DNA of 51,831 bases. It comes from an uncultured Gammaproteobacteria bacterium (GTDB lineage: Bacteria; Patescibacteriota; Patescibacteriia; UBA2196). A program made the position numbers and the translations under genes. The DNA lies in assembly GCA_964488715.1 (NCBI GenBank), contig CAZAVD010000001.1:1-51831 (forward strand), read 5' to 3'. Below the pieces are notes generated by a model, which made no database searches, was not told the DNA's origin, and saw only the letters and a program-made list of their open reading frames with translations. Position 1 is the stretch's first letter, and each line of letters begins with the position of its first letter. Positions 7,373 through 35,708 of the stretch are shown here, piece by piece.

Positions 7373-10177
7373 TTAATTTAACATATTTTTTAAATATTTT
7401 CCAGTCCAGGATTTTTTAATTTTAGCAACATCTTGAGGTGTTCCTTGGGCAACAATTTCTCCGCCTTTATTTCCGCCGTCTGGACCTAAATCAATTATCC
7501 AATCAACATTTTTAATCACATCTAAATTATGTTCAATAATTAAAACAGAATTACCTTTATTAACTAATTTATGCAAAACTTTTAGCAATTTATTTATATC
7601 ATCAAAATGCAAACCAGTTGTTGGCTCATCTAAAATATATAAAGTTCTGCCTGTTGCTCGGCGTGCAAGTTCGGTTGCTAATTTAACGCGTTGAGCTTCA
7701 CCTCCCGACAAAGTTGTGGCTGATTGTCCTAATGAAATATACCCTAAGCCAACATCATTTAAAATATCCAGCTTATTTTTAATATTTGGTTGATCATTAA
7801 AAAATTCTAAAGCTTCTTCAACCGTAATTTCTAAAACATCTGAAATATTTTTTTCTTTATAATGAACATCTAAAATTTCTGGTTTAAATCTTTTTCCTTT
7901 GCAAGCACTACATTTAACATAAATGTCAGATAAAAAATTCATTTCAATTTTAATTAATCCATCACCTTGACATTCTTCGCATCTCCCACCCTTAACATTA
8001 AATGAAAAATTTCCAGGGTCCAGTCTTTTTATTTTAGCTTCAGGTGTATTTGTGAATAATTCACGAATAGCTGTAAAAACCCCAGTATAAGTTGCTGGAT
8101 TTGATCTTGGTGTACGTCCAATTGGGGATTGATCAATTGAAATAACTTTATCAATATTGTTTAATCCTGAAATTTCTTTATGAGCTCCTGGCAAATCTTT
8201 TGCATGGTGAAAATGTCTTGCTAAAGCTTTTGCTAAAATCTCAGTCATTAAAGTTGATTTTCCAGAACCAGATACTCCTGTGATGGCAACTAATTTGCTT
8301 AATGGAATTTTAACATCAATATTTTTCAAATTAAATTCGCTAGCTTTTTTAATAATTAGGGATTTATTAGAATTTTTATTTATTTTAGAAGCATTGTGGC
8401 TAATTTCTACAGATTTTTTGTTTGATAAATATTCACCAGTTAATGAATTTTTATCTTTTTTAATTTCACTTGGCGTGCCTTGAGAAAGAATTTCACCTCC
8501 ATATTTTCCTGCGCCTGGCCCCACATCAATTAAATAATCAGCTGATAGCATTGTTTGTTCATCATGCTCAACAACAATTACGCTATTTTCCAAATCACGC
8601 AGTTTTTTTAAAGTTTTTATTAAATGCTCATTATCTTTTGAGTGTAATCCAATTGATGGTTCATCTAAAACATAAATTACATTGCTTAATCCAGCTCCAA
8701 TTTGTGTTGCCAAACGAACTCTTTGAGATTCTCCGCCAGATAAAGTTTGGGCTCCACGACTTAAATTTAAATAACCTAAACCAACTTCATTTAATGACTT
8801 TAATCTGTCAGAAATTTCTCTAGTTATTTGAGAAGCAATTAGTTTTTCTTGAGAAGATAATTTTTTTAGACTTGAAAAAAAATCTAAACATTCTTTAATG
8901 GTCATTTCGCCTACTTCAGCAATATTTTTTTCAACAACAGTAACAGATAGAGCAGTTAAATTTAATTTTTTACCATCACATTCATCACAAGTTGTTGCTC
9001 GCATATATTTTTCAATTTCAGATTTAACATATTCTGAATTAGATTCTAAATATTTTTGTTTTAAGTTTGGAATTACGCCTTCAAAATATTTATCACCATT
9101 TAACAACACATCTAATTGTTTTTTATTAAAATCTTTAATAGCTGTATTTATACTAAAGCCATTAGCTTCACCTGATTTTTGGATTTTAGCCAATAAGCCA
9201 TCTAAACTGCGCGCCCCAGTACGCACCCAAGGTCTAACAGCTCCTTGGGCAACAGTTAATTTTTTATTAGGTATAACTAAGTTTGAATCAATTTTTTGTT
9301 TTACACCCAAGCCAGAGCAAGCAGCACAAGCGCCATAAGGAGAATTAAATGAAAAAAGTCTTGGTTCAATTTCTAACAAACTAAAATCACATTTTGGACA
9401 AGCTAAATTTTCTGAAAATAGTATTTCTTTTTTATTTTTAATATCAAAAACAATTACTAATCCGTTTGATAAATCAAGAGCTGTATTTATCAGATTATTA
9501 ATTTTTTTATCTGACTCAGATTCAGGATCTGAATTATTTAAACTACCAATTACAATATCCAGATTATGTTCTTTGTCTTTATCTAAATTTATATTTAAAG
9601 ATTCTTTGACTGGATAAAATTCATTGTCTAATCTAATTTGATCAAAATCTGCTTTATTAATTTCTTGTAAAACTTTTTTATGTTCACCTTTTTTATCTTT
9701 TATTAAAGGTGACAAAATAAGAATATTTTTATTTTTGCTAAATTTAAGAATTTTTTCAGTAATTTGTTCTTTGCTTTGTTTTGTAACTTTAGTTTTACAA
9801 TTAGGACAATGAGCTTTGCCAATGCGGGCAAAAAGCAAACGCAAAAAATCATAAATTTCAGTCATTGTCCCAACTGTTGATCTTGGGTTATATGAACCTG
9901 TTTTTTGATCAATTGCAATGGCAGGAGAAAGACCGTTTATTTGATCTACATCTGGCTTATCTTGCGGACCTAAAAATTGGCGAGCATAAGAAGATAAGCT
10001 TTCAACATATCTGCGTTGTCCTTCAGCATAAATTGTGTCAAAAGCTAAAGAAGATTTTCCAGAGCCTGAAATTCCAGTAATAACTACAAATTTATTTTTA
10101 GGAATATCTATGTTAATATTTTTTAAATTATTAACCCGTGCGCCTTGAATTGAAATTAAAGAATTTTTTTGATGCAT
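7373..10177 (-). CDS. uvrA: excinuclease ABC subunit A
   Basis: 934 aa. Two ABC ATPase modules ([23 protein letters not shown] signatures) and zinc-finger CxxC pairs. Confidence 0.95.
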
Positions 10178-10279
10178 AAGATGTTTTTACTTAAAACTAT
10201 TATATATTATTTTTCATTTTTGGTCAAACCATTTGTTAATTATTTGACCAAAAGATTGTTTTCTGGCAAGATAAATGTA

Positions 10280-11770
10280 ATGGGAAAAAGAAATATTTTA
10301 ATTATAATCTTGTTAATTAGCTTGCTCCTAGGAGTTGGGGCTTTTTATTTTTACCTTAAAAATATAAAAGTAAGCCAAGACATTATTAATTTTGTGCCAG
10401 AAAATGCAATTTTTTATGCTGAATTAGATTTACAAAATCAGGAATTACAAAATTTTAATAAACAAAATTTTCGTGGTAAAACACGATTTGAATTATTATT
10501 AAAAAAGTCCAGTTTTTTTGGAAAATTATCAAAATATTTGATTGAAAAAAGCAATAAAATTTCTTTAGTAATAGTTGATATTAAAGATGATCCCGAGTAC
10601 TCGGGACATAAAATTTGGATTATAAACTCTAATAATATTCATGAATTGCATGCTTTAATGCCAAAAAATTTTAATGTTTCAATTTTAAATTCTAATACTA
10701 TTGCCTTGTCAGAAAACAAAGACGCATTAAGATTAATTAAAAAAATAAATCTGTCAGCTAGTGAAGAAGAAAATTCAAAACAAGCCATAGCTAGTGAATT
10801 GCATAAAAAAATTGCTAAAAACTTTTCTAATGATAATTTTTTAAATGTTTATTTAAATAACCAGTATTTACAAAATAAAATTAATTCATCTGATTTAATT
10901 TTTCCATTAATTTTAAATAATTTAAATTTAGATTTTAATGAGTCTGCGTTTTTAAATTTAAAAGCTGAAAATAATAAGATAATCTATAATTTTAATGCTT
11001 TGTCTAAAGATAAAACTCAAATTCTTGGGTCTAAAAAATTTAATTCCACAGAAAATTTGTTACAATTAGTTGATTTAGAAAACAAAAATAATTTTGCAGC
11101 ATTTTTTATGGCTGATTTAGAAAATGTTTTTGATTTTTTAACTTTAGAACAAAAAGAAATTTGGCAAAAAAAATATAATTTAGATTGGAAAAAAATTAAA
11201 AAAATCTTAAATAACTCAGGAATATTTATAATAGAACATAAAAATAACAAAATAGAGAGTAGAGATGTTTTGAATTTACAAAAATATAATTATGCTTTAA
11301 TAATTCCAACAGATTTAGAAACAAAAAAAGTTATTGAATATAAAGAAGAAATAAAACAGATTATAAAAAATATTTCAGCTTTTAAAAATCCAATTGAACA
11401 AATTAAAAAACTTCTTGATAATAGCAAGTCTATAGAATTAATTGCTGATCCTAAAAGCATTAAATTTATTTCTGAAAATGATTTAGAGATTTTAGATGTT
11501 GAAAACTTTAATTTTGCAATAACCATGCAAGATAGTAATATAATTTTAGGTAATAATAAAAACTTAATATTAGAAATTTTAAATAAACAAAATGGCTCCA
11601 CGCAGGAGCATGGAGCCAACATAAATTGTGATTTATTAACTGGAAGTGAAGCTTTAATTATGAATACTAATAAATTAACAAGTGGAATTTTAAGTTTTGT
11701 AGATAAATTAATATTAAATTTTGAACAAAAAGGAAAGAAGGTGAAGTTAGAAGGATGTCTTTTGTGGTAA
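10280..11770 (+). CDS. hypothetical membrane-anchored protein
   Basis: The ATG at 10280 is followed by a TM helix (ILIIILLISLLLGVGAFYFY). The rest is low-complexity and N/K-rich. Two palindromic elements lie in frame within it. Confidence 0.5.
   Translation: MGKRNILIIILLISLLLGVGAFYFYLKNIKVSQDIINFVPENAIFYAELDLQNQELQNFNKQNFRGKTRFELLLKKSSFFGKLSKYLIEKSNKISLVIVDIKDDPEYSGHKIWIINSNNIHELHALMPKNFNVSILNSNTIALSENKDALRLIKKINLSASEEENSKQAIASELHKKIAKNFSNDNFLNVYLNNQYLQNKINSSDLIFPLILNNLNLDFNESAFLNLKAENNKIIYNFNALSKDKTQILGSKKFNSTENLLQLVDLENKNNFAAFFMADLENVFDFLTLEQKEIWQKKYNLDWKKIKKILNNSGIFIIEHKNNKIESRDVLNLQKYNYALIIPTDLETKKVIEYKEEIKQIIKNISAFKNPIEQIKKLLDNSKSIELIADPKSIKFISENDLEILDVENFNFAITMQDSNIILGNNKNLILEILNKQNGSTQEHGANINCDLLTGSEALIMNTNKLTSGILSFVDKLILNFEQKGKKVKLEGCLLW
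10591..10606. repeat. 16-bp perfect palindrome TCCCGAGTACTCGGGA inside a CDS
   Basis: Related to TCCCGAGTTCTCGGGA at 5681..5696 and to the MITE terminus CTCGGGATGACA. Translated as DDPEYSGH. Confidence 0.7.
11591..11620. repeat. inverted copy of the 34-bp GGCTCC/GGAGCC hairpin repeat inside a CDS
   Basis: AATGGCTCCACGCAGGAGCATGGAGCCAAC is the reverse complement of GTTGGCTCC..GGAGCCATT. Translated as NGSTQEHGAN. Confidence 0.7.
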
Positions 11771-30604: not shown

Positions 30605-31309
30605 ATGGAGACTCAAATTTTTACTTATGGAAAGTATTCTTATGAATATTTTCTAATTAGACAATCACGTAAAACCGTAAGCTTAATTGTTTATCCTAAT
30701 TTTAAGATAGTTTTGAAATGTCCTATTGACTATAAAGATGAAAAGATACAGAGATTTCTAAAAAACAAATGGTCTTGGCTTGAGAAGCAAATCAAATACT
30801 TTAAGAAATACCAAAAGACTATCTTAAATAAAGAGTATTTATCAGGTGAATCATTTTTGTATTTAGGCAGGCAATATAAGTTATCAGTTAAAAGAGGTGC
30901 AGAAGATAAGGTGACTTTAAAGCATGGTAAGTTATTGTTATTTACTACGGAAAAAGTTGGTAACAAAAAACATAATAGAAAAATATTAAAGGGTTGGTAT
31001 GCGAATAGGATTGAGAAAATATTTAATGATGAGTATAAAAAGGTGTTAAAGACTTTTAATTATGTTTTTGAACCGCAGCTTATAACTCGTGAAATGAATA
31101 AACGCTGGGGAAGTTTCTTGAACCATAAAAAAATAATTCTTAATCCTAAGTTAATTCAAGCTCCTAAAGAATGTATTGATTATGTAATTACCCATGAATT
31201 ATGTCACATGAAACATAAAAATCATGATACGAAATTTTACAGATTATTAAAAAGTAAAATTCACAATTGGGAAGAGATTAAAGAGAAGTTGGAATTAAGA
31301 TTTATATAA
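30605..31309 (+). CDS. M48/DUF45 (YgjP-like) zinc metallopeptidase
   Basis: HExxH motif in VITHELCHMKHKNH. 234 aa. This family commonly trails hsdR. Confidence 0.75.
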   Translation: METQIFTYGKYSYEYFLIRQSRKTVSLIVYPNFKIVLKCPIDYKDEKIQRFLKNKWSWLEKQIKYFKKYQKTILNKEYLSGESFLYLGRQYKLSVKRGAEDKVTLKHGKLLLFTTEKVGNKKHNRKILKGWYANRIEKIFNDEYKKVLKTFNYVFEPQLITREMNKRWGSFLNHKKIILNPKLIQAPKECIDYVITHELCHMKHKNHDTKFYRLLKSKIHNWEEIKEKLELRFI

Positions 31310-31363
31310 GGTTATGTATAAACACCTAAAATCAAAACAAGAATACATTGATAGATATGACCG

Positions 31364-31392
31364 CCTGACAGTTGATAGCTGTCGGGTTTTTT
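31364..31392 (+). terminator. rho-independent terminator of the hsd operon
   Basis: CCTGACAG-TTGATAG-CTGTCGGG followed by TTTTTT. Confidence 0.7.
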
Positions 31393-31445
31393 AGCTAATA
31401 TTAGCCTATATTTAATAAAATAGTAAAATTGTCAGGGTTCAAACC

Positions 31446-31474
31446 TTGACAACTTTTTAATTATGTGCTATAAT
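31446..31474 (+). promoter_or_regulatory. perfect consensus promoter TTGACA-17-TATAAT
   Basis: TTGACA at 31446..31451 and TATAAT at 31469..31474. The -35 box lies in the right arm of the inverted repeat TTGTCAGGGTT/AACCTTGACAA (31429..31452). Confidence 0.65.
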
Positions 31475-31480
31475 TGAGTA

Positions 31481-31792
31481 TACAAAATAAAGATGTGGAT
31501 ATTTCCTGATCTTTACAATCAAACTTAAAAACAAGAGAGACAGTTTAGTAGGCACTGTGAGTCCTACAATAAGCAATTTTATAGGTTTATTAGCTTTTTT
31601 GCGGGCTTCTCTCTTGATTCACAGAAGGCCGTTTTTGTTTTTTTAAGCAGTAAAGTGGGAGTAAATAATTATTCTCACTTAGATTACTTAAAAAGTTCTT
31701 TACAACATCCTCCTAAATGATTTAAGGTAATTAGTCAGTTTAATAAGCTGTTTGATTACCTTAAATCATGAAAAACATTGATGGAGGATAAA
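31481..31792 (+). ncRNA. structured ~310-nt leader / possible cis-regulatory RNA or sRNA
   Basis: Mutually exclusive pairings: 31532..31540 with 31608..31616, versus the terminator-like hairpin at 31601..31644. A 15-bp helix pairs 31717..31731 with 31755..31769. An anti-SD ATCCTCC at 31707..31713 is complementary to the SD at 31783..31789. Confidence 0.4.
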
Positions 31793-32374
31793 ATGAAAAC
31801 TGTTTTGATGGGACCCCCAAGGTCCGGTAAAAGTTGCATGCGAGAAGGATTAAAGCAGGCAATTAAGAATATCCCAGGAGCGCCGTATCCTTATGTAATC
31901 ACGGCATGTCCTGATGGCGAAGGTGCTTGGTTCCAGGAAGCTGCAAACCGCGATTCGGAAAAAGCCCGCGAATTAAAAACTGATTATAAACAATCAGTCG
32001 GTGGTTTTTCCCCCAAATTTGTTCAGCGGATTGCAGAATCCGTAGCCAACTGCACTTTGCCGATGACTTTGGTGGATATTGGCGGAATTCCATCAAAAGA
32101 AAATGAAGTAATCTGTGCTTCCGCCACTCATGCCATCATTCTGGCTGGTGATATGAGTAAAGTTCCTGAGTGGAGAGAGTTCTGCTTAAAGCTCGGAATT
32201 GAAGTGATAGCAGAAATTCATTCTGACTATCATGGCCAGACAGACGAAGTCCCCACCCTTGGTGAGGATGAAATCTGGAGAGGATCCGTGCATTATCTTG
32301 AGCGCGGTGAACCAGTGGCCGAGCGTCCCACTATAAAAAAGCTTGCAAAGATATTGATTGAAAAATCAAAATAA
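31793..32374 (+). CDS. P-loop NTPase (uncharacterised; partner of Csx3-like gene)
   Basis: The ATG at 31793 lies 5 nt after GGAGG. Walker A is GPPRSGKS, with a Walker-B-like LVDIGG. The region is GC-enriched. Confidence 0.6.
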   Translation: MKTVLMGPPRSGKSCMREGLKQAIKNIPGAPYPYVITACPDGEGAWFQEAANRDSEKARELKTDYKQSVGGFSPKFVQRIAESVANCTLPMTLVDIGGIPSKENEVICASATHAIILAGDMSKVPEWREFCLKLGIEVIAEIHSDYHGQTDEVPTLGEDEIWRGSVHYLERGEPVAERPTIKKLAKILIEKSK

Positions 32375-32453
32375 AAAATGTTTCTGGCCACCTCAGAAAC
32401 AAACCAAAAAAGCTACTGACGGTGGGGTAGCAAAAATTTTTTAGGAGGCTATC

Positions 32454-32759
32454 ATGGCTCATTACAATGTAAATCTCGAAAACGAAAACGTGTTGAAGGT
32501 CGGCTTCGGCGAACCATCGCAAAATGATGAAATCGTTCGTGACGCTGTCAAGCGTTTGGATGAAATGACTGAATCCGGCGAATTGGCTGGTGGCTCTGTT
32601 ATCAAAATTAACGGCCCGGCCTCTCTGCCCGTTGCTGTTGCAATTGCCCATGCGGTCAATCATCTATACGAAACCGTTGCTGTTTTCGATCCAAAGCTGG
32701 GTAAATATGTTGTCGCTGTTTCTCATGGCGCATACAATCCTGGCGACCTGATTGACTAA
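32454..32759 (+). CDS. csx3: Csx3/Crn3-family protein (CRISPR-associated cA4 ring nuclease / deadenylase fold)
   Basis: 101 aa with an AGGAGG Shine-Dalgarno sequence. IKINGPASLPVAVAIAHAVNHLYETVAVFDPKLGKYVVAVSHGAYNPGDLID parallels A. fulgidus Csx3 ISGRGPIWLHCFLAHKYHHTPFVAVYDPRLGAVVVQSHSELREGDVID. The reference sequence is recalled from memory. Confidence 0.7.
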   Translation: MAHYNVNLENENVLKVGFGEPSQNDEIVRDAVKRLDEMTESGELAGGSVIKINGPASLPVAVAIAHAVNHLYETVAVFDPKLGKYVVAVSHGAYNPGDLID

Positions 32760-32787
32760 ATAGTTATCAGGAGAGCAAAACCCGTTT

Positions 32788-32834
32788 GAGGAGTGTCTGA
32801 AAAACAAGTCACTCGTGGCACTCCTCTTATTTTT
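32788..32834 (+). terminator. terminator-like hairpin after csx3
   Basis: GAGGAGTG (32788..32795) pairs with CACTCCTC (32819..32826), followed by TTATTTTT. Confidence 0.5.
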
Positions 32835-32911
32835 CAAAATCTGATTTATGCAAATAAGGTTTTGAAAGATAAAAAATAAAATAGTTCTTTACAATAAAAA
32901 AGAGGTGTATC

Positions 32912-33427
32912 GTGGATATTCTAACCGTAGTTGAAAAGATGGTTGTCGAATGGCAACAAAAGCTCGGTGATTCAGTTGAAGTTATTCTCGGAGGTTCTTT
33001 GGTCTCCGATTTATTTATTTTTGATGAGAAAACAGAACTGATTGATGTTGATGTTCGTTTTCTCACAAATAATCCAGAAGACCCTGAACTTCGTCAAAGG
33101 ATAGAAAAAGTTACAGGTCTCAAATACCGTAAAACCATCACTGTTAATGATTGGCCAACTGGTCAAAGTCTGGGCATTATGGTTGAAGGTCAGATGAGCT
33201 TACCTGAACTACCTTTACCAATGGATATTGAGGGTTGCATTCGCAATCCAAAATACGTTGGCTGGGGTAAATTCTATCGAGACGTTTTAACTGAAAAAGA
33301 GCTGGAAGATTTTCGCCAAAAGAAAATCGCTTTACGCCATGACAAAAAAGCTTATAAACAGATGAAAGCTGAAGTTAGGGCTGAAGTTGAAAAGCGATGT
33401 TTGGAACAAGGAATTGTAAGTAAGTAA
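32912..33427 (+). CDS. minimal nucleotidyltransferase (pol-beta superfamily) candidate
   Basis: GTG start after AAGAGGTG. GGS-x15-DVDV motif (ILGGSLVSDLFIFDEKTELIDVDV), a later acidic MDIEG, and a charged helical C-terminus. Confidence 0.5.
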   Translation: MDILTVVEKMVVEWQQKLGDSVEVILGGSLVSDLFIFDEKTELIDVDVRFLTNNPEDPELRQRIEKVTGLKYRKTITVNDWPTGQSLGIMVEGQMSLPELPLPMDIEGCIRNPKYVGWGKFYRDVLTEKELEDFRQKKIALRHDKKAYKQMKAEVRAEVEKRCLEQGIVSK

Positions 33428-33459
33428 TCTATTAACCTGTAAAACAAGGAGAAAATATC

Positions 33460-35331
33460 GTGAATAATCAGAGAACTGTGAACGGCAAGGCTCTTGGCCT
33501 GGCGTTCTGGAAGAAAGCTGACGAAGTTGTGGGGCTGGTCAAAAAAAGTCGTGGTATTGTGGTAATGCCTACTGGCACTGGCAAAACAACCCAAACACCG
33601 CAATTGTTACACGAACAAGGTTTTACTCGCCAAGGAAAAATTTATATATCTGTTCCCAGAAGAATCTTGGCAGTTGAACTGGCAGCTCGTGTTGCTGATG
33701 AAATGGGAGTAAAACTCGGTGAATTGGTTGGCTATCAGATCCGTGGTGAACGTAAATTGAGTCATCAAACACGAATCATCTTTATGACAGAAGGAACATT
33801 ACGCGGAAAAATTCGCAATAATCCAATGTTAAAAGGTGTCAGCGTGGTCGTATTCGATGAGTTTCATCAACGAACTCTTATGAGTGACTTCAATGTTGCT
33901 CTTATCGAACGAGCTCAGCAAGAAGGTTCGCAGGTAGCGTTTTTGCTCATGTCGGCCACAATTGACCCGACCTATCTTGCCAATCACTTTGATTGCGACG
34001 TGGTTGATGGTTCTGATTTGGATACTACCTATCCAATTACTGAGGAATATATTGATCCTCAGGAAAACGGTGGTTTATTCAAAACAGCAGCCGAGCAGGT
34101 AGAGCGCATGATTTTGGAAGCTGAAGGCAATGGTATGGTTTTTATGCCTGGCAAAGCTGAAATCAACCAGACAATCGATGCAATCCGTGATCTTAATCTG
34201 CCCAAAAATGTAACTGTTCTACCGTTACACGGTGATCTTGATGGCGATGACCGCCATGCTCCATTTGTGGAACGAGATGGTATTACAGTCACGATTGCAA
34301 CGGACATTGTTGAGACTGGTGCCACATTACCAAATATTGGCTGGGAAGTTGATTCTGGACTGGCAAGAGAAAAAGGATATGATCCCGTATCTGATATTTC
34401 TTCCTTGAAAGTTCAGAAAATAGCCAAAGACCGCTTAAAGCAACGTCGTGGCCGAACAGGTAGAGTTCGTGAAGGTCGATATGTTGGATTATTTTCAAAG
34501 GATGACTTTGATTCTCGTCCAGATCGAACCAAGCCCGAAATCTTTCGAACTCCTTTAAGAGAAGTTGTATTAACCATCAAATCACTTGGTCTGTCTCGAG
34601 AAGGAAATTCAATTCGATTGATTGACTATCCGCCAAAAACCAACTGGAAGCAAGCTAAACAACAATTGCAGATGCTGGAGTTTGTTAACAGCGACGATGA
34701 GGCGAACATCAACGAATATGGCAAAAAAGCTGTTGAACTTGGCTGTGATCCTCGTGAGTCTGCTATGTTGCTCAAGTCCGCTCAGTTGGGTTGTTTACGG
34801 GAGATGTCAATTGCTATTGCCGCCCAGCAAAGCCATCGCTTACTGTATTGTCCGAAAAGTGAAGAATATGAGGCCAATATGGCTCATGCGAGATTCCGCA
34901 CTTCGGAAACATGTGATGGATGGACAGCAGTAAAGGTGATTCGGATGGCAGAAGCTCGTGGCGAAGAATCTCTCGGATCCTGGTGTCGAGCAAATTATGT
35001 ATCATACCGCTCGATTCAGGAAATCTGGCAAACTTCACGTCAACTGCTTACAACCATGAAAGGTTTAGGTTTTTCAGTAAATGAGCAGGAAGGCACTGAA
35101 GAAAATTTACGCAAAGCAATTTTTGCCGGATTGCCAGACCGAGTATTCCAATGGGATGGACGGGATTGGTTCAAACGTGATGATGATTCTTGCCTGATGG
35201 GACGAGACTCGGTAATCCGTGAACGATCAAGTGATACACCAGTAGCCGCTTGGGAAGTTATCGAAATTTCTACCAGAAAAGGTGGAACTCTTCGATTGAT
35301 CACCAATGCGGTGACAGTTGAAACAAATTAA
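33460..35331 (+). CDS. DEAH/RHA-family helicase (HrpA/HrpB-like)
   Basis: GTG start after AAGGAG. Motifs PTGTGKTT, DEFH, SAT (LMSATID), FMPG, TDIVETGATLPNI and QRRGRTGR. HA2-like region LEFVNSDDEANINEYGKKAVELGCDPRESAMLLKS. Confidence 0.85.
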   Translation: MNNQRTVNGKALGLAFWKKADEVVGLVKKSRGIVVMPTGTGKTTQTPQLLHEQGFTRQGKIYISVPRRILAVELAARVADEMGVKLGELVGYQIRGERKLSHQTRIIFMTEGTLRGKIRNNPMLKGVSVVVFDEFHQRTLMSDFNVALIERAQQEGSQVAFLLMSATIDPTYLANHFDCDVVDGSDLDTTYPITEEYIDPQENGGLFKTAAEQVERMILEAEGNGMVFMPGKAEINQTIDAIRDLNLPKNVTVLPLHGDLDGDDRHAPFVERDGITVTIATDIVETGATLPNIGWEVDSGLAREKGYDPVSDISSLKVQKIAKDRLKQRRGRTGRVREGRYVGLFSKDDFDSRPDRTKPEIFRTPLREVVLTIKSLGLSREGNSIRLIDYPPKTNWKQAKQQLQMLEFVNSDDEANINEYGKKAVELGCDPRESAMLLKSAQLGCLREMSIAIAAQQSHRLLYCPKSEEYEANMAHARFRTSETCDGWTAVKVIRMAEARGEESLGSWCRANYVSYRSIQEIWQTSRQLLTTMKGLGFSVNEQEGTEENLRKAIFAGLPDRVFQWDGRDWFKRDDDSCLMGRDSVIRERSSDTPVAAWEVIEISTRKGGTLRLITNAVTVETN

Positions 35332-35340
35332 ACCCGATGT

Positions 35341-35381
35341 GCAAGGTTGTTGTTAACACTCCAGCAACCTTGCCTATTTTT
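35341..35381 (+). terminator. rho-independent terminator of the cassette
   Basis: GCAAGGTTG (35341..35349) pairs with CAACCTTGC (35365..35373), followed by CTATTTTT. Confidence 0.7.
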
Positions 35382-35426
35382 CAAAGTTTATAAAAATGTT
35401 ATTATAATTTTTGAAGAATATCAAAG

Positions 35427-35520
35427 TTTTCACTCATCTGAGTGATGACGGTAAATATGTCAGTTAGATTTCTCTCTTGTCTGATATACTTGCCAAATGT
35501 CATCCTCAGGTGAGTGAAAA
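35427..35520. repeat. 22-23 bp inverted repeat with a 49-nt spacer
   Basis: TTTTCACTCATCTGAGTGATGAC (35427..35449) pairs with GTCATCCTCAGGTGAGTGAAAA (35499..35520). The spacer contains TCTCTCTTGT (35471..35480). Confidence 0.75.
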
Positions 35521-35708
35521 TAAATAAATGTTTATCATAAATTTAGTTCTGGTATAAAAATTAATCCTGTGTTATTCTTAAAATAAGTTCCAACGTCCTT
35601 CACGATAGAGCTCCAATTATATTTTACTAAAAAAGAATTACGTAATTAATTACATAATTCTTTTTTTGATTGGAAAACAATAGTTGTCAAACTATTTTAC
35701 ATACATAT

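Follow-up and report, generated by a model that had tools for sequence, protein, structure and literature searches.

The segment 31446-31792 of the window (the whole 51,831-nt stretch of DNA analysed here) is read by us, with about even confidence, as a promoter followed by a ~312-nt 5′ untranslated leader that acts in cis on an operon encoding P-loop/AAA, Csx3, nucleotidyltransferase and DEAH helicase proteins. The leader is a composite of two units, unit A (31446-31646) and unit B (~31695-31789), and it is a rare new variant of the known leader-type gene switches rather than a new kind of element. The best reading, to which we give an even chance of being right, is a nut- or rrn-like cis-acting leader with an attenuator and occlusion of the ribosome-binding site (RBS). 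The main new result is the boxA-like nature of the 11-mer GTTCTTTACAA in this leader; a first, sequence-only reading had overlooked it, together with the fact that a boxA-like motif plus a long hairpin is common to many homologous cassettes.

Promoter, reading frames and overall folding

All sequence features listed in the sequence-only reading were found where it had placed them. On the + strand, a sigma-70-type promoter lies at 31446-31474, with TTGACA at 31446-31451, a 17-nt spacer and TGc-TATAAT at 31469-31474. The earlier description of a consensus promoter whose -10 box ends at 31474 is borne out, since 12 of 12 positions match and the -10 box is of the extended type. Transcription is predicted to start at ~31480-31482. 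Sequence comparison showed that the promoter is kept in L083 and L093, two related loci which carry the whole leader in different genomic contexts with homology from the -35 box onwards, and in G019, another genome of the same family. An inverted repeat, flagged as terminator-like with 10 pairs and followed by CTTTTT, does span the -35 box (31429-31452, + strand), as had been noted. The further idea that this repeat is an operator is unsupported and was rejected, because homology with L083, L093 and G019 begins at 31445/31446, leaving the left arm outside the conserved unit, and the repeat is missing from L093 and G019.

The host is an ultra-small (CPR) bacterium, with the four-gene Csx3 cassette downstream of the leader. 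No ORF of at least 40 aa was found on the + strand between 31310 and 31778, which agrees with the remark that no plausible reading frame precedes the ATG at 31793; a promoter-proximal, non-coding leader thus lies ahead of a co-oriented gene. Short reading frames in the leader are not kept in relatives (from the ATG at 31493, the window reads 11 aa, L093 reads 18 aa, and G019 has only ATG-TGA), and a leader-peptide attenuator was rejected because a conserved ORF was not found.

Folding of 31481-31800 with RNAfold gave -93.2 kcal/mol (z -7.46), a value that 0 of 100 shuffles equalled, and the reverse strand of the same segment gave -75.9 kcal/mol (z -5.44). The better folding of the + strand is due to G.U pairs. 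When 31300-31900 was searched against Rfam at gathering and E-value thresholds, no family was found, and only noise appeared (miRNA hairpin models and L20_leader, 16-22 bits). The leader contains no tRNA or tmRNA, and a search for further copies within the genome found none, so the leader is single-copy. An internal duplication was also considered and discarded: the comparison of part A with part B scored 18, no significant gain over the 17.8 that shuffles averaged.

BoxA-like sites and the long hairpin of unit B

At the 5′ edge of unit B, GTTCTTTACAA (31695-31705, + strand; boxA-like site 2) matches 10 of the 11 positions of the BoxA consensus GYTCTTTAANA, the mismatch being a C at position 9 (PMC5725501). 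The site lies on the sense strand and is mostly single-stranded (unpaired probability 0.63), with hairpin H4 directly 5′ and the long hairpin 11 nt 3′ of it. The 11-mer has only 3 genomic copies, all of them intergenic and sense to the downstream gene. Motif search located one of these, site 3 (32884-32894, + strand), between the Csx3 and NTase genes, with a terminator-like hairpin upstream of it; this intergenic region (32760-32911) is 97% identical to that of L093, whereas the Csx3 gene is only 75% identical. A weaker candidate, site 1 (GATCTTTACAA, 31508-31518, + strand), is half paired inside hairpin H1 (unpaired probability 0.39), and its core TCTTTACAA is kept in the window, L083 and G019.

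Among 137 distinct leaders of homologous cassettes, boxA-like motifs were counted 31 times in sense and once in antisense orientation, against 0.76 expected from shuffles, with a loose pattern composed after about a dozen examples had been inspected; the strict form of the motif gave 20 sense and 0 antisense occurrences, against 0.125 expected. Perfect matches to the consensus are present in related leaders (GTTCTTTAAAA and GCTCTTTAAAA) and also in the G019 leader. The commonest variant among the homologous leaders is GTTCTTTGAAA, a form which we take to be the Firmicutes rrn type of boxA. In 22 of 28 other loci the motif was less paired than the sequence around it, and a stem of at least 12 pairs follows within 100 nt downstream in 79% of the boxA-bearing homologous leaders (median z -4.5). 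In the rrn leader of the host itself (contig C38), a hairpin is followed by GTGCATTTAACAATTT, which is related but not identical to the cassette motif. The host genome encodes NusB (above the Pfam cut-off) and RNase III, and Rho was not found in it.

Downstream of site 2, the anti-SD ATCCTCC (31707-31713, + strand) is paired with the SD GGAGGAT (31783-31789), which together with the ATG at 31793 makes up the translation start of the P-loop/AAA gene (31783-31795, + strand). This sequestration, suggested by the sequence-only reading, appears in both the MFE and the centroid structures, and in L083 a C-to-U change in the anti-SD keeps the pairing as G.U. The unpaired probability of the SD is 0.003 in the full leader versus 0.69 without the anti-SD. 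Between the two strands lies the long hairpin (31717-31769, + strand), whose 15-bp stem (31717-31731 with 31755-31769) is exact, as had been described, and is extended in the fold to ~24 bp; its arms reach 26 nt at 85% complementarity, a length that would suffice for it to be a possible target of RNase III. Sequence conservation of unit B stands at 95%. Across 63 homologous loci the median unpaired probability of the SD is 0.32, and in G019 it is 0.000 by way of a non-homologous anti-SD, the layout there being a perfect GTTCTTTAAAA, a 22-bp hairpin and this anti-SD, in that order.

An RNA thermometer was considered and rejected, since the perfect 7-bp, CCUCC-containing helix is clamped by the ~24-bp hairpin and is too stable to act as a weak, melting helix. 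Inspection of the frames also yielded a seven-codon uORF (MKNIDGG*, 31767-31790, + strand), which covers the SD, stops 2 nt before the main ATG and has no SD of its own. It is doubtful; its frame is retained in L083, L093 and the relative L084 despite indels, a retention that is statistically not compelling.

Competing folds, distribution and other explanations of unit A

The 5′-proximal hairpin of unit A, H1 (31488-31515, + strand), appears in all three predicted structures (MFE, centroid and RNAalifold), and its 3′ strand overlaps boxA-like site 1. In the predicted folds it is followed by the P2 domain (31532-31616, + strand), where a 14-bp closing helix, the antiterminator, is drawn around P2a (31548-31567), P2b (31568-31591) and a 2-bp stem. 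The core of this helix consists of CAAGAGAGA (31532-31540) and its exact complement TCTCTCTTG (31608-31616); the sequence-only reading had recognised the complementarity, and the helix is longer than it stated, with 14 bp interrupted by a single bulge (31532-31546 with 31603-31616). All four distinct unit-A sequences have an identical 9-bp core.

The competitor of the antiterminator is a weak intrinsic terminator (31601-31644, + strand; -11.4 kcal/mol), in which a stem (31601-31610 with 31623-31632) with a G.G mismatch and a 12-nt loop is directly adjoined by the U-tract 31633-31644. Of the terminator-like hairpin proposed earlier (31601-31609 with 31624-31632), the U-tract holds and the strength does not: the stem amounts to 4+5 bp around the G.G mismatch, one pair being G.U, and a simple terminator scan missed it. 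The proposed mutual exclusion is real, with the antiterminator fold at -38.8 kcal/mol versus -37.1 kcal/mol for the terminator-enforced fold. Stepwise folding placed the formation of the antiterminator helix at the point where 31618 has been transcribed, ahead of the terminator. Because the terminator is weak and the antiterminator forms first, most transcripts should read through. Beyond this point, predicted folds contain H4 (31639-31695, + strand), a 24-bp hairpin in which the terminator U-tract is paired with CUUAAAAAG and which ends directly 5′ of boxA-like site 2; two substitutions in L083 leave its pairing intact as G.U.

By sequence comparison, unit A is a portable block. It recurs in G019 with 74% identity from the -35 box to the U-tract (31446 to ~31646), with unrelated genes downstream. 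The antiterminator and terminator folds of the G019 copy are likewise near-equal (-29.9 vs -28.9 kcal/mol), and its substitutions preserve both of them; at the position of the G.G mismatch a U-A pair gives 8 contiguous bp, followed by a U-run. In the four distinct unit-A sequences, 2 pairs changed on both sides, a number that 23 of 500 shuffles equal, and the terminator helix showed zero double changes from one pair to another. Searches with the covariance model R1 in 13 family genomes and with DNA in 400 class genomes each returned G019 only. A pattern search in 400 phylum genomes gave three matches, palindromic and unrelated, and neither the IMG/VR pattern search nor the phage GenBank records yielded any. 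In ~170 cassette loci searched with nhmmer, no homologue of the whole leader was found outside the clade with at least 94% protein identity, and R1 had no match in 100 of those loci. No more variants came from the G019 cargo protein, which is an ORFan; the 5 contigs listed, of the 14 carrying the protein, are all identical.

Unit A may instead be a separate sRNA gene, with its own promoter, a ~165-nt RNA and its own terminator, the RNA acting in trans, for example via the invariant AAAACAAGAGAGACAG or UCUCUCUUG, and expression of the cassette depending on leak-through or on a promoter that escaped recognition. We consider this unlikely, though it deserves to be weighed. The block shared with G019, from the -35 box to just past the U-tract, has the limits of such a transcription unit, and the downstream cargo is different in the window and in G019. 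A third, inverted copy of a 10-mer of the leader, moreover, lies in the apex of a conserved long 3′ hairpin (35426-35521, + strand; region z -10.97). This apex, UCUCUCUUGU (35471-35480), is complementary to the leader segment ACAAGAGAGA (31531-31540), and the hairpin is kept in L202, where 3 of 3 substitutions preserve pairing; L202 shares the conserved 4.1-kb unit 31446-35528 with the window in a different genomic context. The 10-mer has only 3 genomic copies, 2 of which are within the conserved unit in inverted orientation, and other copies of ACAAGAGAGA in G000 and G019 are inside coding sequence. Pairing in trans between the hairpin apex and the leader was rejected, as the -17.8 kcal/mol duplex is unexceptional and ranks no higher than the top 3.6% of background windows. 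What also argues against a separate sRNA gene is that a co-oriented gene follows in both loci with no promoter-like site between the terminator and that gene, that the weak terminator is pre-empted by the earlier-forming antiterminator, and that everything downstream of the terminator is still highly structured, including the well-conserved unit B.

A leader with no conditional regulation, in which the structures are constitutive 5′ stabilisers, a fixed partial terminator damping a very strong promoter and insulators of a horizontally moving cassette, seems rather improbable to us. It would fit the evolution of the leader, which is only a little slower than that of neighbouring synonymous sites: identity is 91-92% in the leader versus 83-88% at synonymous sites of the adjacent gene, a slight excess with p = 0.41 and 0.02. 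It would also fit the ~45-nt leader of L084, a relative of 84% identity, the upstream gaps of only 50-200 nt in many homologous cassettes, and an SD occlusion that is not family-wide. Against it stand the coordinated G019 substitutions that maintain the balance between terminator and antiterminator, the independent origin of SD occlusion in two loci, and the strong strand specificity with which the boxA-like motif is enriched.

The sequence-only reading had offered a riboswitch or an attenuator. What survives of this proposal is a cis-acting leader in which a terminator fold and an antiterminator fold compete and the SD is occluded; a ligand-binding riboswitch is unsupported, since an Rfam match is absent, only four distinct sequences are available and covariation is weak. 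In its fullest form, a small-molecule riboswitch would have P2 as the aptamer and the terminator as the expression platform, with a ligand that may be a cassette-related nucleotide signal, for instance a cyclic oligoadenylate that Csx3 degrades, and we hold it to be improbable. The two exclusive, near-equal-energy folds retained in two diverged homologues would suit it, as would the strong conservation of the core sequences, namely hairpin P2a and the two halves of the closing helix; having no Rfam match, it would be an orphan class. The same module, however, stands ahead of unrelated ORFan genes in G019, which makes a ligand tied to Csx3 unlikely. The family is also tiny, searches having found it neither in ~800 sampled CPR genomes apart from G019 nor in ~100 further cassette loci, and a covariation-supported aptamer core was not found in the four sequences. 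A search for a sensor that would serve an attenuator or riboswitch platform gave no Rfam family, tRNA-like fold or conserved leader peptide.

The inverted 10-mers ACAAGAGAGA and TCTCTCTTGT, near both edges of the 4.1-kb unit, might instead act at the DNA level and mark the ends of a mobile cassette or serve its recombination. The presence of that unit in another context in L202 would accord with such a role, as would the two inverted 10-mer copies it holds. We regard it as highly improbable: the homology boundaries lie 86 nt and ~50 nt outside the 10-mers, neither a recombinase or transposase nor a target-site duplication came to light, G.U-dependent pairing favours a + strand RNA, and G019 has unit A without the third 10-mer copy.

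Relation to known leaders and proposed working

The leader of phage lambda pL-nutL-N carries boxA, a boxB hairpin, an RNase III-sensitive hairpin and the ribosome-binding site of N. The cis-acting leader that we favour here is like it in its strong promoter, in a boxA-type site beside a hairpin in a long 5′ leader, in terminators to read through, in a long duplex affecting the RBS of the first gene and in a host with RNase III. Unlike lambda, the Csx3 cassette has no identified N-like protein or boxB consensus, the order of its elements is hairpin, boxA, long hairpin, its host has no Rho, and unit A adds a terminator/antiterminator switch.

Antitermination leaders of rRNA operons have the arrangement boxB-boxA-boxC and a NusA/B/E/G-SuhB complex (PMC4807359, PMC10250234). 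The Csx3 leader shares with them a boxA-like sequence that comes after a hairpin and soon past a strong promoter, and a host with NusB, while the second boxA-like site inside the operon, at 32884, is like those of rrn spacers. It differs in that the operon is protein-coding, GTTCTTTACAA is not the same as the host's own rrn boxA GCATTTAACAA, and boxC was not identified.

BoxA also controls non-rRNA genes, and it has been described in mRNA 5′ UTRs of E. coli and Salmonella suhB and of a ParE-like toxin-antitoxin operon of Citrobacter koseri, with Nus-dependent regulation of translation and termination; in E. coli mRNAs it represses rather than antiterminates (Baniulyte et al. 2017, PMC5725501). 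Common to these cases and the present one is a BoxA-like motif in the 5′ UTR of non-ribosomal, including conflict-type, genes. The described BoxA sites are within ~50 nt of the start codon and repressing, whereas the present motif sits 98 nt ahead of that codon, at a distance that is 130-180 nt in relatives, and is linked with a long hairpin. The leader further resembles generic 5′-UTR premature-termination riboregulators (Millman et al. 2017, PMC5314783; Naville and Gautheret 2010, PMC2965389) in placing an intrinsic terminator and a structure that excludes it between promoter and first gene. It is unlike them in that the antiterminator is the default, more stable fold and in that the promoter and leader form a portable block of which four sequences only are known.

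As we picture the working of this cis-acting leader, unit B is the leader type of many homologous cassettes, with a single-stranded boxA-like site (GUUCUUUACAA) and then a long hairpin, and in the present locus an anti-SD/SD helix flanking that hairpin buries the ribosome-binding site. Unit A is a rarer, portable add-on. It brings the consensus promoter, the 5′ hairpin H1, the weaker boxA-like site and the three-hairpin domain P2, whose closing helix and the weak intrinsic terminator exclude each other. Since the antiterminator helix forms first in stepwise folding, transcription from the very strong promoter would mostly pass the leader terminator. NusB/S10-type factors at boxA may then make the polymerase terminator-resistant, and a factor holding the invariant purine-rich 5′ strand AAAACAAGAGAGACAG may tip the balance toward termination. 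On the full-length mRNA the first gene would be translationally silent until the long hairpin is cut, possibly by the RNase III present, or unwound. In this picture the structures with their conservation, the enrichment of the motif and the occlusion of the SD are results of the analysis, whereas Nus binding, the trigger and the processing are inferred.

A bolder proposal, which we put forward as speculation with only a small chance of holding as a whole, is that portable blocks of promoter and structured leader let CPR bacteria domesticate horizontally acquired, potentially toxic cassettes, the stand-alone Csx3 cassette being governed by a three-layer RNA safety switch. In the first layer, the boxA-type site would draw in the Nus factors of the host and so allow a cell without Rho to read through the built-in intrinsic terminators. 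In the second, unit A would be a new riboregulator class whose purine strand is sensed by a factor; this factor could be the operon's own 3′ hairpin, the apex of which mimics the 3′ strand of the antiterminator and could thereby provide feedback at the RNA level. In the third, translation would be licensed only once the RBS-occluding hairpin has been cut or unwound.

Gene regulation in CPR/Patescibacteria is almost unexplored, and leaders of this kind are absent from Rfam. If the boxA reading is true, Nus-factor control would extend from rRNA to horizontally acquired, defence-like cassettes in Rho-less minimal genomes. Stand-alone Csx3/AAA cassettes, widespread among CPR bacteria, would in that case share an RNA control region, boxA plus a long hairpin, by which they could be recognised, located and annotated. 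Unit A, for its part, offers a small and testable example of a portable promoter-attenuator block used across unrelated cargo genes.

Structure of the leader and occlusion of the ribosome-binding site

All elements that the sequence-only reading listed in the 5' untranslated leader (~31481-31792, + strand) were found where it had placed them. A sigma-70 promoter that matches the consensus at 12/12 positions and has an extended -10 (end at 31474) is followed by RNA in which no ORF of at least 40 aa lies before 31778, and the complementary pair CAAGAGAGA / TCTCTCTTG was verified. The competing helix that contains this pair is longer than claimed, with 14 bp (31532-31546 with 31603-31616). The terminator does have a hairpin (31601-31632) and a 12-nt U-tract, but its stem is less good than proposed, with a G.G mismatch, a G.U pair, a 12-nt loop and -11.4 kcal/mol. 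Further downstream, the 15-bp helix is perfect and its arms extend to 26 nt, and the pairing of ATCCTCC with GGAGGAT, the SD of the first gene, was confirmed. RNAfold gave -93.2 kcal/mol (z -7.46) for 31481-31800 and -75.9 kcal/mol (z -5.44) for the opposite strand.

For the cassette SD, the probability of being unpaired was 0.003 when the full leader was folded versus 0.69 without the anti-SD. The corresponding values were 0.18-0.48 for the remaining operon genes and a median of 0.32 for homologous loci with a strong SD (n = 63), about 10% of which fell below 0.05. In G019, a genome of the same family, a 410-nt leader (z -7.39) is structured to the same degree, and its SD is fully occluded by sequence non-homologous to that of the window. 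A mini-ORF without its own SD (MKNIDGG*, 31767-31790) spans the cassette SD and ends 2 nt short of the main ATG; its frame is retained despite indels in three homologous loci (MKNIDYGG* in L083, MKNIDCGG* in L093 and MKNIDWRI* in L084).

With middling confidence, we read the element as a cis-acting 5' leader of the cassette, in which a boxA and long-hairpin unit with RBS occlusion (~31695-31789) is joined to a portable promoter/attenuator block (31446-31646). Nus factors would load at the boxA-like site, a trigger would tip the leader toward termination, and the long hairpin may be processed.

BoxA-like sites and associated hairpins

TCTTTACAA occurs three times in non-coding parts of the cassette (31510, 31697 and 32886), and GTTCTTTACAA was read as boxA-like from the upstream sequences of other loci. 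The published BoxA consensus is GYTCTTTAANA, and BoxA regulation of mRNAs is known, including that of a toxin-antitoxin operon (PMC5725501). Across 137 distinct upstream regions of homologous cassettes (400 nt each), the loose motif was found 31 times in sense versus once in antisense (shuffles, 0.76), and the strict motif 20 times versus 0 (shuffles, 0.125). The exact 11-mer has just three copies in the whole host genome, all of them between genes and in the orientation of the gene that follows. The motif was single-stranded by preference in an accessibility test and usually has a long hairpin 3' of it; the order in G019 is GTTCTTTAAAA, a 22-bp hairpin and an anti-SD. The host genome encodes NusB and RNase III but no Rho.

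In the host rrn leader a hairpin is followed by GCATTTAACAA, a variant unlike the cassette motif. In this leader, on contig C38 and 5' of the 16S gene, the hairpin (UUGUUGAUAAACAACAA) lies between a consensus promoter and GUGCAUUUAACAAUUU, which gives boxB-boxA in canonical order, with a boxA variant other than that of the cassette. The only GTTCTTTACAA copy of the host genome outside the window cassette (contig C66, ~1756-1766, - strand) lies just past a stop codon, ~98 nt 5' of a gene whose SD, AAGGAGGA, is strong, and is a candidate for another boxA-type leader.

Two homologous loci (L016 and L150) have TGCTATAATTGAGT in common with the window, but in these two loci boxA follows it immediately. 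This suggests that the promoter/attenuator block and the adjoining hairpin (31639-31695) were inserted into a common promoter-boxA-hairpin-SD layout.

Two further regions of the conserved unit are structured. In region 32760-32911 (z -4.9), a GC-rich hairpin and the UUAUUUUUC that follows it resemble a terminator; the region also holds another hairpin and the third GTTCTTTACAA, at 32884. The 3' end, 35325-35560, is extremely structured (z -10.97) and holds the operon terminator (35341-35373), a second hairpin overlapping a TTCAAA-17-TATAAT sequence that resembles a promoter (35380-35408), and a hairpin of 96 nt (35426-35521) in which 3/3 substitutions in L202, the full contig of L093, preserve pairing; L202 homology stops at 35528. 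The match between the apex of the 96-nt hairpin and the antiterminator strand is no more than a lead.

The promoter/attenuator block and its competing folds

When the order was searched, one second copy of the block came up, in G019 (same family, different genus), with 74% identity from the -35 to just beyond the U-tract (window 31446-31646). There a T4SS-coupling-like ATPase gene precedes the block, and the genes that follow are unrelated to the cassette: one encodes an ORFan of 131 aa, the other a protein of 268 aa without a Pfam match. This gene pair (L197, the G019 region C2:55000-70000, at 9065-10482, - strand) has no Pfam or PADLOC match, a GC content of 44-49% versus ~32-43% in the flanks (mostly 35-40%), and the ATPase gene on one side and alaS on the other; the 131-aa protein had no homologue among a 5.8-billion-protein collection.

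That the block makes a separate sRNA is unlikely: its terminator is weak, and no promoter-like site was found 3' of that terminator in G019. Somewhat less likely again, the hairpins would be constitutive elements. The antiterminator and terminator folds differ by <2 kcal/mol in the window and G019 alike, and in stepwise folding the antiterminator closed at 31618, ahead of the terminator 3' arm being made. We regard a riboswitch as improbable. The 9-bp antiterminator core is identical in 4/4 sequences, the G.G position of the window terminator is a U-A pair in G019, and two U.G pairs of the antiterminator extension are replaced there, one by U.U and one by C-G. Covariation statistics are weak with these four sequences, and wider searches found no further members. 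That the features are DNA-level ends is very improbable. Homology among leader-bearing loci begins exactly at the -35, with unlike context 5' of it.

Distribution of the leader and genomic setting of the cassette

The source genome (865 kb, ~28% GC) is typical for CPR/Patescibacteria, and homologues of the downstream proteins come mostly from CPR MAGs. The four genes 3' of the leader (GC ~43%) encode a P-loop NTPase (PADLOC 'Csx3-AAA', 5e-57), a protein resembling Csx3, a 171-aa protein in whose sequence a GS...DxD nucleotidyltransferase motif was read directly, and a DEAH/HA2 helicase. On their 5' side are a Thoeris/type I R-M island and, with a terminator of its own, a YgjP peptidase gene; on their 3' side is an HTH-Panacea gene. 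Between 26186 and 36554, strong SDs of the GGAGG type (duplex -7 to -9 kcal/mol) precede the cassette genes, whereas the flanking hsdS, hsdR, ygjP-like and HTH-Panacea genes are essentially without SDs, which again points to a cassette of foreign origin.

The AAA protein has >1000 homologues (65-94% identity). Among ~170 loci fetched, only the closest clade (at least 94% protein identity) carries the leader: L083, L093/L094 and identical window copies; nhmmer and a covariance model gave no match beyond it. The unit common to the window and L202 is 31446-35528. In L084 (84% identical) the promoter lies ~50 nt from the ATG and only the final ~34 nt are in common with the window, and the gaps 5' of the gene in the remaining loci are mostly 50-200 nt.

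Leader variants are 91-92% identical versus 83-88% for the four-fold sites in the gene next to them, a slight and weak sign of extra constraint. Across the unit as a whole, identity is 68% at four-fold sites versus 95-97% in intergenic regions; the latter value holds against L093 for 32760-32911 and 32375-32453, while the Csx3 gene between them is just 75% identical (third codon positions, 55%).

A distinct conserved leader family lies 120-285 nt upstream of the AAA gene in a 69-75%-identity clade (L102, L103, L105, L107, L108, L109, L111 and L118). Besides boxA-like or related sites, this leader contains a hairpin of ~22 bp (CTTGCGGGAAGCAAATTGG...), CCCTCC segments that resemble an anti-SD and, adjoining the SD, a GCTTGGG..CCCAAGC hairpin; additional conserved blocks reach up to ~1.2 kb 5' of the gene in L102 and ~0.6 kb in L105. 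The boxA and long-hairpin unit of the window is typical of the cassette family, and the promoter/attenuator block is rare.
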